Shown here piece by piece: positions 1,574-6,616 of a stretch of DNA of 25,055 nt. The notes beneath the pieces are model-generated. The model had not been told where the DNA came from, searched no databases, and saw nothing but the letters and a program-made list of their open reading frames with translations. This stretch comes from an uncultured Dehalococcoidales bacterium (lineage in GTDB: Bacteria > Chloroflexota > Dehalococcoidia > GIF9 > AB-539-J10). Numbering within the stretch: position 1 is the first letter of the stretch; the number at the start of each line of letters is the position of its first letter. The stretch covers positions 1 to 25,055 of the forward strand of contig CAZILT010000068.1 of assembly GCA_964540185.1 (NCBI GenBank), in the 5' to 3' direction. The position numbers and the translations under genes were made by a program.

Positions 1574-1603
1574 TTGAAAACCCCTTGGGTAGTGGGGTAT
1601 AAT
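1574..1603 (+). promoter_or_regulatory. Probable sigma70 promoter of the CoA-ligase/lyase operon
   Basis: TTGAAA (1574-1579), 18-nt spacer, TATAAT (1598-1603). Strong SD AAGGAGGT precedes ATG 1715. Confidence 0.55.
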
Positions 1604-1714: not shown

Positions 1715-2962
1715 ATGGCTAGGTTATTCGAATACCAAGGGAAGGAGTTTCTCAAGGATGCTGGGATTGCGATTCCAACAGGGGGAGTTGCCTCTACCGC
1801 GAAAGAAGCATCTGAAGTTGCCGCCAGAATAGGGAAACCAGTGGCGGTAAAGGCGCAAGTTTGGGTTGGAGGTCGGGGAAAAGCCGGTGGGGTAAAACTT
1901 GCTGATACACCGGAAGAGGCCGAGAAGGCAGCTAAGGCTATTTTAGGAATGGAAATAAAGGGGTTCCCTGTCCGAAAGGTGCTGGTAGAAGAGAAATTGG
2001 ATATCGGGAAGGAATATTATGTGGGTATAATTCCTGACGGTTCGTGGGAGAGCAGATGTCCAGTACTTATGTTCAGCACCGAAGGGGGGATGGAGATAGA
2101 GGCAGTTCCTGAGGATAAAATTTTCCGAGCAAAGGTTGATTACCTTGAAGGGTTCCCCTTCTATGATGCTTTGGATATGGCTAGCAGTGCAGGTATTCCG
2201 AACGAGTTGCTTAAGGAAATGGCAGGAGTGATTTCTAAGCTGGTGGCAGTCTTTAAGAAGCGTGACTGCAATATATTGGAGATCAACCCTTTAGTAGTAA
2301 CTAAAGAGGGTCAGGTGATTGCAGGAGACTGTCGTATGAGTATTGACGATAGCTCGAGCTTCCGCCACCCCGAGATGGGGATCACTATCCCTAGAGAGTT
2401 TCCCTGGGAACCAACTGATTTTGACCTAGTTGGTTGGGGAATTGAAGAAACTGACCTTCGTGGCTCAGGCTTTGTTATGAAGATGACACTGGATGAAACA
2501 AGTCCCGGATTTATTGGCTTCCACGCCATTGGTGGCGGAGCAGCTATGATAGGGATGGACGCACTCAGCAGAGTGGGTCTCAAACCGGCAAATTTTGCTG
2601 ATACAAGTGGCAATCCAGTGGGTTCCAAAATTTACCGAGTGGCCAAAGTAGTTCTAGCCCAGCCCAACATTGAAGGTTACCTGCTGGCTGGCTTTCTAAT
2701 TGCTAATCAGGAACAGTGGCATCACGCTCATGCCATAGTCAAGGCTTTAAGAGAAGAACTTCCTAAAAGGCCAGGGTTTCCTTGTGTCCTTCTTTTGGCC
2801 GGGAATAAAGAGGAGGAGTCTTTACAGATACTGAAGGAGGGTCTGAAAGGTCTGCCTGGGCGTATCGAAATTTACGGGAGCGAGCGTGTAGAGGATAGTG
2901 ACTTCATTGGAAAGAGGATGGTGGCGTTAGTAGAAGAATATCGTAAGGAAAAAGGAAGATAA
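1715..2962 (+). CDS. ADP-forming acyl-CoA synthetase beta-like subunit (ATP-grasp; SucC/citryl-CoA synthetase/ACL superfamily), substrate unknown
   Basis: ATP-grasp N-terminus LFEYQGK...KAQV..GGRGKAGGVK, EINPL, GDCRM. C-terminal domain has GGGAAM, ANFADTSGNP and GFLIANQEQW instead of SucC GAGLAM, FLDVGGG and NIFGGIVRCD. Confidence 0.85.
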   Translation: MARLFEYQGKEFLKDAGIAIPTGGVASTAKEASEVAARIGKPVAVKAQVWVGGRGKAGGVKLADTPEEAEKAAKAILGMEIKGFPVRKVLVEEKLDIGKEYYVGIIPDGSWESRCPVLMFSTEGGMEIEAVPEDKIFRAKVDYLEGFPFYDALDMASSAGIPNELLKEMAGVISKLVAVFKKRDCNILEINPLVVTKEGQVIAGDCRMSIDDSSSFRHPEMGITIPREFPWEPTDFDLVGWGIEETDLRGSGFVMKMTLDETSPGFIGFHAIGGGAAMIGMDALSRVGLKPANFADTSGNPVGSKIYRVAKVVLAQPNIEGYLLAGFLIANQEQWHHAHAIVKALREELPKRPGFPCVLLLAGNKEEESLQILKEGLKGLPGRIEIYGSERVEDSDFIGKRMVALVEEYRKEKGR

Positions 2963-2978: not shown

Positions 2979-3266
2979 ATGGAATTTGAAGAAAGAACCA
3001 TTAAAGTAATCATTGATACAACTAAGTGCCCTGATTGTGTAAGCAAAGCTTGTGTAGAGGCCTGTAAGCTTTACAGCCGAGGAATTTTGCGATTAAGCGA
3101 TGGGAAGCCCTCTGTGAGTCATCTTAGCCCTGAAGAGGTGAAGCGGAAGGGCACGGAATGCCTGGCGTGTGAGTATGCATGCTGGCAACGTGGCAATAAT
3201 GCCATCCGTATCGAGATTCCTATTAAGGGCCTCGGTGATTATCTGAGGAAACGCAATCTTAAATAG
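2979..3266 (+). CDS. Ferredoxin-like Fe-S protein (7 Cys)
   Basis: C17xxC20xxxxC25xxxC29 and C61xxC64xxxC68 in 95 aa. Has its own SD (GGGAGG) and sits between the beta and alpha genes. Confidence 0.8.
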   Translation: MEFEERTIKVIIDTTKCPDCVSKACVEACKLYSRGILRLSDGKPSVSHLSPEEVKRKGTECLACEYACWQRGNNAIRIEIPIKGLGDYLRKRNLK

Positions 3267-3275
3267 GGGGTAAAA

Positions 3276-4172
3276 ATGTCGATTCTTATTAATGAAAATA
3301 CCACGGTAATTGTCCAAGGGATAACTGGCCGGGAAGGTTCTCTCCGATCTAAGTATATGAAAGATTACGGCACCAGGGTGCTAGCAGGCACCTCTCCCGG
3401 CAGAGGTGGGGAGGAGGTGGCTGGGATTCCTGTCTATAATACTGTTAAGGAAGCAGTGAAGGCCCAAGGTCAGATAGATATGAGTGTCACCTTTATTCCA
3501 GGCCCGGGATTGAAGATGGCGGCACGGGAGGCCATTGATGGTGGCATCAAAATTATTGTCTGTCCAGTAGAGAGGGTGCCCCTTCATGATATCATGGAGA
3601 TGGTGGCACTAGCCAAGAAGGCAGGAGTTATGATAGTCGGGCCAGGGTCCATTGGTGTTATAAGCCCGGGGAAGGCTGTTGCTGGATGGTTGGGGGGGAA
3701 TATAGAGTGGGCGACTAAGCTATTTCATCCTGGTCCAATTGGAGTTTTATCTCGGAGCGGTGGTGAGTCTGGGACAGTACCCTGGGTTCTCAAGCAGGGT
3801 GGGATTGGTGTAAGCACAGCTATTCATACAGGCACTGAACCAATTCTTGGAATGTCTTTTGCTGATTTTCTTCTCCAGTTTGAGAAAGATGAACAGACTC
3901 TGGCTGTAGCTGCTTTTGGTGAGATTGGTGGCAGTCAGGAGGAAGAGGCCGCTGAGCTTATCAGGGCTGGTAGAGTTACCAAGCCTTTCGTCATCTACAT
4001 TGCTGGCGCAGCAGCTCCTGAAGGACAGCGCTTTTCTCATGCATCTGCCATAGTAGAACGAGGGCGTGGGACGGTGGAAGGCAAGGTAAAGACTCTTCGT
4101 GAATCCGGGGCTTACCCGGTGGAAACACCTAAAGAAATCGTCCCAACGCTTAAAAGGGTGTTAAAATTATAA
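3276..4172 (+). CDS. ADP-forming acyl-CoA synthetase alpha-like subunit (SucD-like, CoA-binding)
   Basis: VIVQGITGREG CoA-binding Rossmann motif, GPGSIG, SRSGG, IGGSQEE, and phospho-His motif RFSHASAI (SucD: MGHAGAI). Confidence 0.88.
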   Translation: MSILINENTTVIVQGITGREGSLRSKYMKDYGTRVLAGTSPGRGGEEVAGIPVYNTVKEAVKAQGQIDMSVTFIPGPGLKMAAREAIDGGIKIIVCPVERVPLHDIMEMVALAKKAGVMIVGPGSIGVISPGKAVAGWLGGNIEWATKLFHPGPIGVLSRSGGESGTVPWVLKQGGIGVSTAIHTGTEPILGMSFADFLLQFEKDEQTLAVAAFGEIGGSQEEEAAELIRAGRVTKPFVIYIAGAAAPEGQRFSHASAIVERGRGTVEGKVKTLRESGAYPVETPKEIVPTLKRVLKL

Positions 4173-4258: not shown

Positions 4259-5155
4259 ATGCCAGTACTGCGTTCAGTGTTTTATGTTCCAGGAAATAAG
4301 GAGGAACTAATTGCCAAGATTCCAAGGATACCGGCGGATGTTATTACGCTGGATATCGAGGATTCTGTGCCCCCGGCAGAGAAGCAAAAGGCACGAGAAT
4401 TGAGTCATAAGAATCTCAAATTTGCAGCATCATCGGGAGCAGATGTTTATTGTCGTGTCAACAACTGGGAAACGGGTATGACCAATGCTGATTGTGAAGC
4501 TATAGTTGATAAGGGACTTGCGGCTGTCTGCCTGGCTAAGTGTGGTGGGGCCGATGATGTAAAGCGCCTGGCCTGGAAACTAGAAGAAATGGAACAGAGG
4601 AAGGGGTTAGAGGTAGGGAGCGTAAAAATTCAGCTATTGATTGAAACCGCTAAGGGCATGATGAATGTTTACGCGGCTGCTACTGCAAGTCCGAGGGTCA
4701 ATTCACTGATTTTTGGAGCAGTGGACTACACCACAGATATGAGAGTTACACTGACTCAGCCGATCGGTGAGGAACAAAAGTGGGCCAGGGCACGCATGGC
4801 CTGTGCCGCTAGAGCTGCCGGCATTATAGCCATCGACTGCCCCTACGTAGCTTTCAAGGATACTGAAGGTTTTGAGAAGGATACACTCTACGGGCGGCAG
4901 TTAGGCTTCGAAGGAAGGATGCTGATTCATCCCAGCCAGATTGAGCCTTCTCATAGAATCTACTCCCCCGCACCTGAGAGGGTAGAGTGGGCTAGAGAGG
5001 TTGTCAAGGTGTTTGAGGAGGAGGGAATTGCCAAGGGGTCGGCAGCAGTGTCATACAAAGGCAAGATGGTGGATACTCCTGTTTATATCGGAGCCAAGAA
5101 GATTCTTGATGCCCAGACGGAGATCGAAGCCAGGGAGAGAAAAAGAGCAGGGTAG
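4259..5155 (+). CDS. CitE/HpcH-HpaI family acyl-CoA lyase (citryl/malyl/citramalyl-CoA lyase type)
   Basis: RSVFYVPGN, LDIEDSV, RVN, LIETAKG, FGAVDY, LIHPSQI, GKMVD motifs. SD AGGAGGT. Confidence 0.9.
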   Translation: MPVLRSVFYVPGNKEELIAKIPRIPADVITLDIEDSVPPAEKQKARELSHKNLKFAASSGADVYCRVNNWETGMTNADCEAIVDKGLAAVCLAKCGGADDVKRLAWKLEEMEQRKGLEVGSVKIQLLIETAKGMMNVYAAATASPRVNSLIFGAVDYTTDMRVTLTQPIGEEQKWARARMACAARAAGIIAIDCPYVAFKDTEGFEKDTLYGRQLGFEGRMLIHPSQIEPSHRIYSPAPERVEWAREVVKVFEEEGIAKGSAAVSYKGKMVDTPVYIGAKKILDAQTEIEARERKRAG

Positions 5156-5230
5156 TAGTGCAGTGCTAAAACAGCTGTGTCTGAAATAGTGCCCCAGTTG
5201 GCAAGCGAATTTGAAAAGGAGGTAATCAAT

Positions 5231-6616
5231 ATGGGTGTAATAACTGCAGCTAAATTACAGGATGTTGTTGGTAAGGATTGGGTGGTAACAGCAGCAGAAC
5301 AAATGATGGACTATATGCAGGATGCAGTGATGGGAGCTGTAATCCCTAAGCCTGCCAAAAACATCATCGTGGCAAAACCAGCTAATGCACAAGAGATATC
5401 AGAGATATTGAAGCTGGCAAATAAGAAGAAATTCCCCGTCATCGTCAGAGGTGGAGGAAGTGGAATGGCTGGTGGTGCTGTACCAAATATAGACTGTGTG
5501 CTTCTCTCACTAGAAAGAATGAACAAGATTGTAGAGATAAGCAAAGAGGATTTAATGATCACCGTTGAAGCAGGCAAGCCTTACGGGGAGATGTGCGAAG
5601 CTGTAGAAGCTGAGGGTATGTTCTTCGCCCCCAGGCCAGGGGATTTGGGTGCTCATTGTGGTGGCATAGTAGCAACCAATGCCGGTGGGTCAAGAGCAGT
5701 GAAGTATGGTGTCACAAGGGCTTTCCTGAAAGGCATGGAGGTTGTGACCCCCGCTGGCGAAATATTGCATCTCGGTGGAAAGCTACTTAAGTATTCTATG
5801 GGTCTTGATTTAGCACATTTGTTTGTGGGCAGCAAAGGAACTTTGGGTGTAATAACTCAGGTTACCTTCAGGCTGGCGGTCAAGGCACCCTTTAGTGCCC
5901 TTCTGCTGGCATCATACGATGATCGTCTTGAATGTATGAAAGTTGCTCCACACGTAACTGCAGCAATGATAATTCCTCTGGCCGGGGAGTACATCGATCA
6001 CGACTTGGCCGTCGATACTGCCAAGTACCTGGGCCTTGAGTGGCCTGCCAAGAAAGGGAAGGCTCACATATTTTTTGTCAGCGAAGGACCAAATGAGGAT
6101 GTAGTATACGCTGAGCTCGAGAAAATATCTGGGATATGTGAGGAGCATGGAGCCATCGATATACTGATGGCGGAGAGAAAAGAAGAGCAGAACGCCGTTT
6201 TATCGTCGAGGGGTGAGACAGGCTCAATGCAGAAGGCGGCCGGTAATATAGGGGACTTCATGGATGTAGCTGTGCCTCCGTCTCGTGTGGCAGACCTCTT
6301 TGCGGGAATACTAGATCTCGAGAAGAAATACAACACCTGGATACCCACCTGTGGACATGCAAGCGATGGTAATTTACATCCTACGCCGCTGAAGGAACTT
6401 GCAGATAGAGGCGTGCTTGAGGATTGTAAGACTGACATGTACAAGAAAGTTATCGAGTTAGGCGGGGTTTTAACTGGCGAACACGGCATAGGGACAATCA
6501 GGCTTCACAATACTCCTTTATGGCCTGAGCCCCAAGTGTGGGAATATATGAGAAAGGTCAAAAAGGCATTTGACCCGAACAATATATTAAATCCGCAGCG
6601 TGAGATTCCGGACTAA
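5231..6616 (+). CDS. FAD-linked 2-hydroxyacid oxidoreductase, GlcD/LctD/D-lactate dehydrogenase family
   Basis: RGGGSGMAGG, GGIVATNAGG..AVKYG, GSKGTLGVIT, GHASDGNLHP, GEHGIG, FDPNNILNP. Start reassigned from 5177 to ATG 5231, behind SD AAGGAGGT. Confidence 0.9.
   Translation: MGVITAAKLQDVVGKDWVVTAAEQMMDYMQDAVMGAVIPKPAKNIIVAKPANAQEISEILKLANKKKFPVIVRGGGSGMAGGAVPNIDCVLLSLERMNKIVEISKEDLMITVEAGKPYGEMCEAVEAEGMFFAPRPGDLGAHCGGIVATNAGGSRAVKYGVTRAFLKGMEVVTPAGEILHLGGKLLKYSMGLDLAHLFVGSKGTLGVITQVTFRLAVKAPFSALLLASYDDRLECMKVAPHVTAAMIIPLAGEYIDHDLAVDTAKYLGLEWPAKKGKAHIFFVSEGPNEDVVYAELEKISGICEEHGAIDILMAERKEEQNAVLSSRGETGSMQKAAGNIGDFMDVAVPPSRVADLFAGILDLEKKYNTWIPTCGHASDGNLHPTPLKELADRGVLEDCKTDMYKKVIELGGVLTGEHGIGTIRLHNTPLWPEPQVWEYMRKVKKAFDPNNILNPQREIPD

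Follow-up and report, generated by a model that had tools for sequence, protein, structure and literature searches.

A widespread, ferredoxin-associated lineage of the succinyl-CoA synthetase/ATP-citrate lyase superfamily, most likely acting as an ATP-forming malate thiokinase

The described systems closest to the locus studied here are succinyl-coenzyme A (CoA) synthetase (SCS, SucCD), ATP-citrate lyase (ACL) with citryl-CoA synthetase (CCS, CcsAB), the malate thiokinase MtkAB of serine-cycle methylotrophs, and the malyl-CoA route by which anaerobes oxidize glycolate and glyoxylate and which has been known through enzyme assays since the 1990s. Friedrich and Schink, working on Syntrophobotulus glycolicus, and Sakai et al. 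in 2008, on Moorella sp. HUC22-1, reportedly described this pathway, including an ATP-forming malate thiokinase activity. The malyl-CoA pathway for glycolate or glyoxylate is recorded for Moorella sp. HUC22-1, M. thermoacetica, Desulfofustis glycolicus and Syntrophobotulus glycolicus (PMC8092247; PMC6313629). In this work, we analysed a window, that is, the whole stretch of 25,055 nucleotides of contig CAZILT010000068.1 (assembly GCA_964540185.1) from an uncultured Dehalococcoidales bacterium, in which five co-oriented genes encode, in this order, the beta subunit of an ADP-forming acid-CoA ligase, a small protein with seven cysteines, the ligase alpha subunit, a lyase of the CitE/HpcH family and a GlcD-like dehydrogenase. 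Our results indicate that this beta subunit is likely the acid-binding subunit of an ADP-forming L-malate-CoA ligase (malyl-CoA synthetase or malate thiokinase) of a lineage apart from the methylotroph MtkAB, and that its family is most likely a widespread, ferredoxin-associated branch of the SCS/ACL superfamily acting as an ATP-forming malate thiokinase.

The beta (large) subunit (415 amino acids, aa; 1715..2962; all feature coordinates are window positions on the + strand) combines an ATP-grasp domain with an ACL/CCS-like acid-binding domain, and is followed by the ferredoxin-like protein (95 aa; 2979..3266; cysteines at residues 17, 20, 25, 29, 61, 64 and 68) and by the SCS-alpha-like alpha (small) subunit with its CoA-binding domain (298 aa; 3276..4172); these three proteins most likely make up the ligase complex. 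Downstream lie the genes for a 298-aa acyl-CoA lyase of the CitE/HpcH family, a probable malyl-CoA lyase (4259..5155; Pfam HpcH_HpaI, 137 bits; 107-128 bits to D. radiodurans CitE, CLYBL and malyl-CoA lyases in the PDB), and for a 479-aa GlcD-like, FAD-linked 2-hydroxyacid dehydrogenase, a candidate glycolate dehydrogenase with the domains FAD_binding_4 and FAD-oxidase_C (5177..6616).

A scan of one genome per prokaryotic species identified 320 genomes encoding a beta subunit of the NQEQWHH type, and our neighbourhood counts refer to the best 80 of these 320. Neighbouring genes were recognized by our own open reading frame (ORF) calling, clustering and Pfam scanning; since this simple caller also yields some antisense ORFs in loci of high GC content, the loci counts were redone with tblastn. 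The order beta, ferredoxin-like gene, alpha, citE is held almost wherever the contig allows, with the ferredoxin-like gene located between beta and alpha in 78/80 loci, alpha present in 77/80, and a CitE-type lyase gene found 3' of alpha in 69/80 as well as in the window. Malic enzyme is encoded in 33 loci, immediately 3' of citE in 27 of them, GlcD-like or GlcF-like (CCG + 4Fe-4S) glycolate-dehydrogenase genes occur in 40, and one or the other kind is present in 54; further recurring neighbours include GntR/FCD and IclR regulators and DctP of the tripartite ATP-independent periplasmic (TRAP) transporters, and neither aconitase nor isocitrate dehydrogenase ever appears among the neighbours in these 80 loci. 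The ligase genes therefore adjoin a CitE-type lyase and are linked to glyoxylate-producing and malate-consuming enzymes, as in the Desulfosporosinus layout IclR-GlcF-GlcD-GlcD-beta-ferredoxin-alpha-CitE-malic enzyme, or in the shorter beta-ferredoxin-alpha-CitE-malic enzyme arrangement of Moorella, Dehalobacter and Dichloromethanomonas.

The 80 loci come from at least five phyla, including Chloroflexota (10/80), Bacillota (33/80; among them Moorella/Neomoorella, Desulfosporosinus, Desulfitobacterium, Dehalobacter and Ca. Dichloromethanomonas), Thermodesulfobacteriota with other "delta" hosts such as Bilophila wadsworthia and Desulfofustis, and Actinomycetota, in addition to one Thiobacillaceae metagenome-assembled genome (MAG); the closest relatives of the window locus are found in Dehalococcoidia MAGs. 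This gene set, namely a 2-hydroxyacid or glycolate dehydrogenase, an acyl-CoA lyase, an ADP-forming ligase and malic enzyme, matches the anaerobic malyl-CoA pathway, and the host genera overlap with those of that pathway; unlike the pathway, which was defined by physiology and enzyme activities, the cassette is known here from genes. In a close Dehalococcoidia relative (locus L002) and in Desulfofustis (L075), the genes around the cassette include those of a TRAP transporter (DctP with its membrane components) and additional GlcD/GlcF genes, which points to the import of a C2 or C4 acid from outside in these two hosts.

A published proteome provides a second line of evidence. Table S2 of PMC8092247 compares strain RM (Ca. 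Dichloromethanomonas elyunquensis) on two substrates: dichloroacetate, whose dehalogenation gives glyoxylate, and dichloromethane. The genome of strain RM has one SucC-like gene, located in a cassette (L063) with the order beta-ferredoxin-alpha-CitE-malic enzyme, and all five products were significantly more abundant on dichloroacetate (p<0.05): the SCS-beta-like PROKKA_18948 by 13.4-fold, PROKKA_18949 ("hypothetical, no database hit", 77% coverage) by 11.7-fold, the SCS-alpha-like PROKKA_18950 by 8.4-fold, the citrate-lyase-beta-like PROKKA_18951 (CitE) by 11.3-fold and the malic enzyme PROKKA_18952 by 6.7-fold (PMC8092247). PROKKA_18949 is the ferredoxin-like protein of this cassette. The log2 intensities of the five proteins, 20.9-23.8, are as high as or higher than the 20.65 of the glyoxylate carboligase emphasised by the authors (PMC8092247); induction and abundance together show that the cassette, including its cysteine-rich protein, is abundantly made when glyoxylate is the substrate, an observation from one organism in which dichloroacetate yields glyoxylate indirectly. 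Based on gene context and on this proteome, L-malate is named as the most likely acid substrate, because glyoxylate and malate together fit only malyl-CoA among the known substrates of CitE-type lyases.

In the cycle that we propose, a glycolate or 2-hydroxyacid dehydrogenase would produce glyoxylate, as gene context and published physiology suggest; the CitE-type lyase would join glyoxylate and acetyl-CoA into L-malyl-CoA; the ligase would convert malyl-CoA, ADP and Pi to malate, CoA and ATP, with ATP formation as the physiological direction favoured by the gene context; and malic enzyme with pyruvate:ferredoxin oxidoreductase would restore acetyl-CoA and close the cycle. The genome that contains the window (approximately 1 Mb, 90% complete) encodes two 2-oxoacid:ferredoxin oxidoreductases, a malic enzyme (contig C152:5-1261) that is 41% identical to the cassette-linked malic enzyme of Desulfitobacterium, and a second GlcD-like FAD dehydrogenase (contig C81:3568-4932) that is 49% identical to the one in the window, and with these genes the proposed cycle would be complete.

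Several points weigh against this assignment. The malic enzyme of the genome lies on another contig and not in the cassette, a GlcF-like iron-sulfur subunit was not found in this genome, and the GlcD-like protein of the window shares only approximately 30% identity with GlcD from other loci. Furthermore, beta belongs to the sole SucCD-like enzyme of the genome, and the same holds for Dehalobacter and strain RM; in these organisms the enzyme may thus also act on succinate. With regard to published work, we found no genes assigned to the anaerobic malyl-CoA pathway in the literature searched, which did not include the key paper of Sakai et al. from 2008. Strain RM ferments glyoxylate and is said to do so without canonical malyl-CoA lyase genes, and the authors prefer a glycerate route for it (PMC8092247).

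One alternative is that the ligase uses another beta-hydroxy-dicarboxylate derived from the CitE reaction, either (S)-citramalate, formed from pyruvate and acetyl-CoA, or beta-methylmalate, which we consider improbable. Lyases of the CitE/CLYBL type also accept citramalyl-CoA and beta-methylmalyl-CoA besides malyl-CoA, the window lyase scores 145 bits with RipC and 125 bits with CLYBL, and the GlcD-like protein of the window stays far under the glcD cut-off (TIGR00387, 302 vs 568 bits) in a genome with no GlcF, where this adjacent enzyme would act as a D-lactate dehydrogenase supplying pyruvate. However, the pocket residues do not vary between this genome and those in which GlcDEF-type genes on one side and malic enzyme on the other enclose the cassette, a substrate that yields glyoxylate induces it, and its commonest neighbour is malic enzyme rather than a citramalate-processing enzyme.

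The second alternative is that beta is the ordinary SCS of the organism with unusual loops, as annotated in databases, where relatives are named succinyl-CoA synthetase beta; the family assignments of both subunits bear on this reading, which we regard as very improbable. Beta resembles SucC in its ATP-grasp domain (Pfam ATP-grasp_2, 193.6 bits) and in pairing with an alpha subunit that carries a phosphohistidine motif. Its ATP-grasp half is closest to the SCS-beta of Thermus, which is also the best PDB match of the whole protein (232 bits) and rank 1 in Foldseek, a search that confirmed the SCS/CCS/ACLY fold against the PDB and does not discriminate among the three; the AlphaFold2 (AF2) model of beta has a predicted local distance difference test score (pLDDT) of 83.9 and is confident except for an inter-domain insert. 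Alpha is SCS-like as well, nearest to archaeal SCS-alpha (265 bits, and 167 bits with the CCS small subunit), and no other SucC-like gene is present in the genome of the window, in Dehalobacter or in strain RM. Against these similarities, beta falls under both SucC cut-offs (NF001913, 265.9 vs 370 bits; TIGR01016, 242.8 vs 375.55 bits), and all four acid-site loops of SucC, namely N-G-A-G-L, D-I/V-G-G-G-A, F-G-G-I-T/V-R and V-R-L-x-G-T/N, are replaced, so that the GAGL, GGGA and GGITR signatures and the conserved Arg are all missing. The genes are linked to a CitE lyase, and SdhA/FrdA was not found in the 90%-complete genome of the window. Bilophila and Desulfosporosinus carry the cassette beside a canonical SucC (506 and 397 bits, above the cut-off), and therefore the cassette is not equivalent to the housekeeping SCS. 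Compared with SucCD (Thermus aquaticus 3UFX; archaeal alpha 2YV2), the cassette enzyme shares the fold, the ATP-grasp domain, the phosphohistidine alpha and both catalytic Glu positions, whereas it differs in the four acid-site loops, a 30-residue insert, the third subunit and a gene context outside the tricarboxylic acid (TCA) cycle.

The C-terminal domain of beta has other affinities, and here the earlier note, which had read the acid-binding pocket as ACL-like, was borne out. This domain passes the Citrate_bind cut-off marginally (PF16114, 29.0 vs 26.8 bits) and stays under that of Ligase_CoA (17.0 vs 24.5 bits); taken alone, it has the CCS large subunit as its best PDB match (54.5 bits, vs 46 bits for Thermus SCS). 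The GGG and SGNP motifs and the loop length are of the ACL/CCS type, and an inter-domain insert of approximately 30 residues with E-x-D-x-RG is common to beta and CCS and absent from SucC. Beta thus reads as a mosaic of an SCS-like and an ACL/CCS-like half. With regard to the malate thiokinase MtkAB, the reaction that we propose (EC 6.2.1.9) is the same and a malyl-CoA lyase is likewise the presumed partner, but the cassette has an additional ferredoxin-like subunit, a likely ATP-forming direction and a place in a separate TSGNP clade; beta falls under the MtkA cut-off (NF010647, 187.5 vs 604 bits), and a SucC-type representative scores 421 bits on the same model, which suggests that MtkA is SucC-like.

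The catalytic apparatus can be compared with SCS at the level of sequence, where the His and the two Glu occupy the SCS catalytic positions in the window proteins. The phosphohistidine candidate of alpha is His255 (4038-4040) within S-H-A-S-A-I, which aligns to G-H-A-G-A-I, and Glu216 of alpha lies within G-E-I-G-G. By homology with SCS and ACLY, malyl-CoA and phosphate would react to malyl-phosphate at the interface between alpha and the C-terminal domain of beta, and the phosphate would then move to His255, whose loop would swing to the ATP-grasp site and phosphorylate ADP.

The acid-site loops of the beta subunit distinguish it from both SucC and the classical citrate enzymes. The four loop motifs quoted in the earlier note are all present in the beta ORF (1715..2962), within positions 2500-2860. 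Loop 1, H270-A-I-G-G-G-A-A (HAIGGGAA; 2522..2545), stands where SucC has N-G-A-G-L; loop 2, A-N-F-A-D-T-S-G-N-P (2588..2617), is of the ACL/CCS SGNP type and replaces D-I/V-G-G-G-A of SucC; loop 3 with its helix cap, GFLIANQEQWHHAH, extends over 2690..2731; and loop 4, V-L-L-L-A-G-N-K-E (2786..2812), places Leu360 and Leu361 opposite Arg378 and Arg379 of human ACLY and opposite the single Arg of SucC. In a set of 117 full-length homologues, collected by homology search and not by motif, NQEQWHH is conserved in 117/117, which answers the question of whether NQEQW is a family trait, DTSGNP in 116/117 and H-x-IGGG in 115/117; the loops are invariant across 19 relatives of 63-87% identity, and Leu360-Leu361 is found in 71/71 beta subunits drawn from the 80 species genomes. 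The loop pattern is not due to chance, and the proposed change of the Arg pair to Leu-Leu holds throughout the family.

The residues of human ACLY named in the literature are Ser343, Ile344, Asn346, Phe347, Thr348, Asn349, Arg378, Arg379, Gly380 and Pro382, and Sun et al. reportedly found in 2010 that Ser343, Asn346, Thr348 and Arg379 bind citrate. The register proposed by eye (Asn346 retained, Gln for Phe347, Glu for Thr348 and Leu-Leu for Arg378/379) was reproduced in a profile-profile alignment (hhalign) of the family with 14 ACL/CCS-type proteins, in which the third loop aligned without a gap. The master sequence of this set has a third loop as long as that of human ACLY, its best PDB matches are Hydrogenobacter CCS (175 bits) and Chlorobium ACL-B (155 bits), and it aligns to GGAIANFTDV and VRRGGP of the latter. 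In this alignment, G-F-L-I-A-N-Q-E-Q-W stands opposite G-T-V-V-A-N-F-T-D-I, and V-L-L-L-A-G-N opposite V-I-R-R-G-G-P. Pairwise HMMER alignment to CCS and MAFFT place the third loop one residue off, and the pairing of Thr348 with Glu333 accordingly rests on the profile alignment; the shifted version was set aside because the profile-profile alignment used a master with a loop of human length. In this register, beta and ACLY residues would pair as Leu328-Ser343, Asn331-Asn346, Gln332-Phe347, Glu333-Thr348 and Leu360/Leu361-Arg378/Arg379, and SucC likewise has an Arg opposite Leu360, in V-R-L. The V-R-R-x-G-P loop of ACL/CCS, which holds human Arg379, and the A-N-F-T motif are not kept, being replaced by L-L (71/71) and A-N-Q-E. 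As to individual residues of beta, their membership of the acid pocket is predicted from these comparisons.

We further placed the family in a phylogeny built from homologues among 1.8 billion cluster representatives, the careful tree comprising 77 proteins (LG+C20, posterior mean site frequency, PMSF). The beta family forms a clade with support of 99/99 and joins a second clade (100/99) at 82/79; the two lie within nested clades supported from 99/92 up to 100/98, with H-G-x-GGG and DTSGNP common to all members, and proteins of the SucC type and of the classical ACL/CCS type (R-R) are found across the central branch. A position of the larger family clade as sister of classical CCS appeared in a quick tree, where it joined ACL/CCS at only 73, and was lost in the careful tree. 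The description of beta as a sister lineage of CCS consequently stands in so far as the nearest clade is CCS-like, and fails in that this clade is not the classical Hydrogenobacter CCS/ACL clade. The second clade is represented by P0127, P0129, P0133, P0135, P0137 and P0143.

The gene context of this sister clade was studied in 80 metagenomic loci (L083-L162), 71 of which carry a beta-ferredoxin fusion gene followed by alpha. CitE, malic enzyme and GlcD-like genes were found in 0/80 of these loci, with one weak GlcF-like match; their commonest neighbours are instead a 259-aa full-length homologue of the Hydrogenobacter citryl-CoA lyase (CCL; 179 bits to 6hxp), present in 34 loci, both aconitase subunits, large and small, and an isocitrate/isopropylmalate dehydrogenase. 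The sister clade therefore looks like a ferredoxin-bearing citryl-CoA synthetase/lyase system, apparently undescribed, that probably handles citrate. It shares with the beta family the ferredoxin-like partner, H-G-x-GGG, DTSGNP and Q-E-Q, whereas its ferredoxin domain is fused, its Arg360 is kept and its cap reads F/Y-H-S-A-R in place of W-H-H-A-H: the full motifs are A-S-Q-E-Q-F/Y-H-S-A-R-G and V-V-R-L-G-G-N, with Arg at 360 in 67/68. Since this clade with a citryl-CoA-lyase homologue also has QEQ, the Thr to Glu and Phe to Gln changes alone are not a sign of lost citrate binding, contrary to what had been proposed.

The residues that change with the partner, from CCL-type to CitE-type lyase, are Leu360, Leu361, Phe327/Leu328, Trp335, His337, His339 and Lys/Arg365, and pocket residues thus appear to track the type of lyase. 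SucC, the sister clade and ACL/CCS all have Arg at position 360, Phe327/Leu328 are small residues elsewhere, and Leu360-Leu361, Trp335, His337 and His339 are unique to the family. The pocket would accordingly be of the ACL/CCS type (GGG, SGNP, long third loop) minus the Arg at 360 and the second Arg of ACL (Leu361), and the two Leu together with the invariant W-H-H-x-H cap may retune it from a tricarboxylate to a hydroxy-dicarboxylate. The acid is likely neither citrate nor succinate, in agreement with the earlier proposal of a less anionic acid other than these two, although the diagnostic residues are partly other than those it named. In comparison with CcsAB of Hydrogenobacter thermophilus (6HXQ) and ACL, beta shares the GGG and SGNP loops, a long third loop with a conserved Asn and the E-x-D-x-RG insert, and differs by L-L for R-R, Q-E for F-T and the W-H-H-x-H cap; moreover, its partner lyase does not have the citrate-synthase fold of CCL or of the C-terminal domain of ACL-A but is of the CitE/HpcH type in 69/80 loci, and the ATP-grasp half and alpha are nearer to SCS. 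That beta is itself a CCS, making with CitE as citryl-CoA lyase a two-enzyme ACL, is the least probable reading and scarcely credible, for although Citrate_bind is above its cut-off, the CCS large subunit is the best PDB match of the C-terminal domain, CitE is the citryl-acyl carrier protein (ACP)/CoA lyase subunit of citrate lyase and the sister clade resembles a CCS/CCL system, both Arg of V-R-R-G-G-P are Leu in 71/71 members, the neighbours are malic enzyme and glycolate dehydrogenase and never aconitase or isocitrate dehydrogenase, and the cassette is induced by a glyoxylate source.

The ferredoxin-like protein, which has no match in Pfam or NCBIfam, is probably the third subunit of the ligase. 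A ferredoxin-like domain is fused to the C-terminus of beta in the sister clade, and the same kind of fusion is seen in P0121 and P0124, which branch deeply inside the clade of the window protein, and in P0152, from a subclade further away; these fusions argue for a physical association of the small protein with beta. We know of no cofactor-bearing third subunit described in the SCS/ACL superfamily, and no mention of an iron-sulfur-type subunit of the malyl-CoA pathway ligase was found in the literature searched. It is conceivable, albeit unlikely, that the ferredoxin subunit makes the ATP-forming step redox-gated, or couples it to electrons from glycolate dehydrogenase, with the W-H-H-x-H cap as part of the link; the cap would then serve this link instead of, or besides, malate recognition. 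We also considered the QEQWHH loop as solely a docking site for the ferredoxin and rejected this, as a fused or associated ferredoxin is found all through the 38-row clade, also in P0152 and P0127, which lack the loop.

If the assignment of the cassette to L-malate is true, no fewer than 320 species genomes would have their annotations "succinyl-CoA synthetase" and "citrate lyase beta" corrected, and anaerobic glycolate sinks would be marked in sediments, in groundwater and in the gut (Bilophila). Furthermore, SucC, the ferredoxin-fused CCS-like clade and the beta family differ at a few named positions that appear to track the partner lyase, and these positions offer a testable map of how acid specificity may be set in the SCS/ACL superfamily.

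Other members of the superfamily were seen in two of the genomes. Neomoorella carbonis has a second non-canonical SucC-like gene (G001:C1:1086455-1087639), with 262 bits on the SucC model and thus below the cut-off, in a genome without canonical SucC. In the genome of the window, contig C96:7192-10217 (L082) contains a 909-aa frame with weak ATP-grasp and CoA-binding similarity to beta and alpha, which is probably a fused ADP-forming acyl-CoA synthetase and the only other superfamily member there. Finally, a promoter-like site, TTGAAA, 18 nucleotides and TATAAT, is located upstream of the operon at 1574..1603, a pattern match that agrees with the consensus at 11/12 positions.

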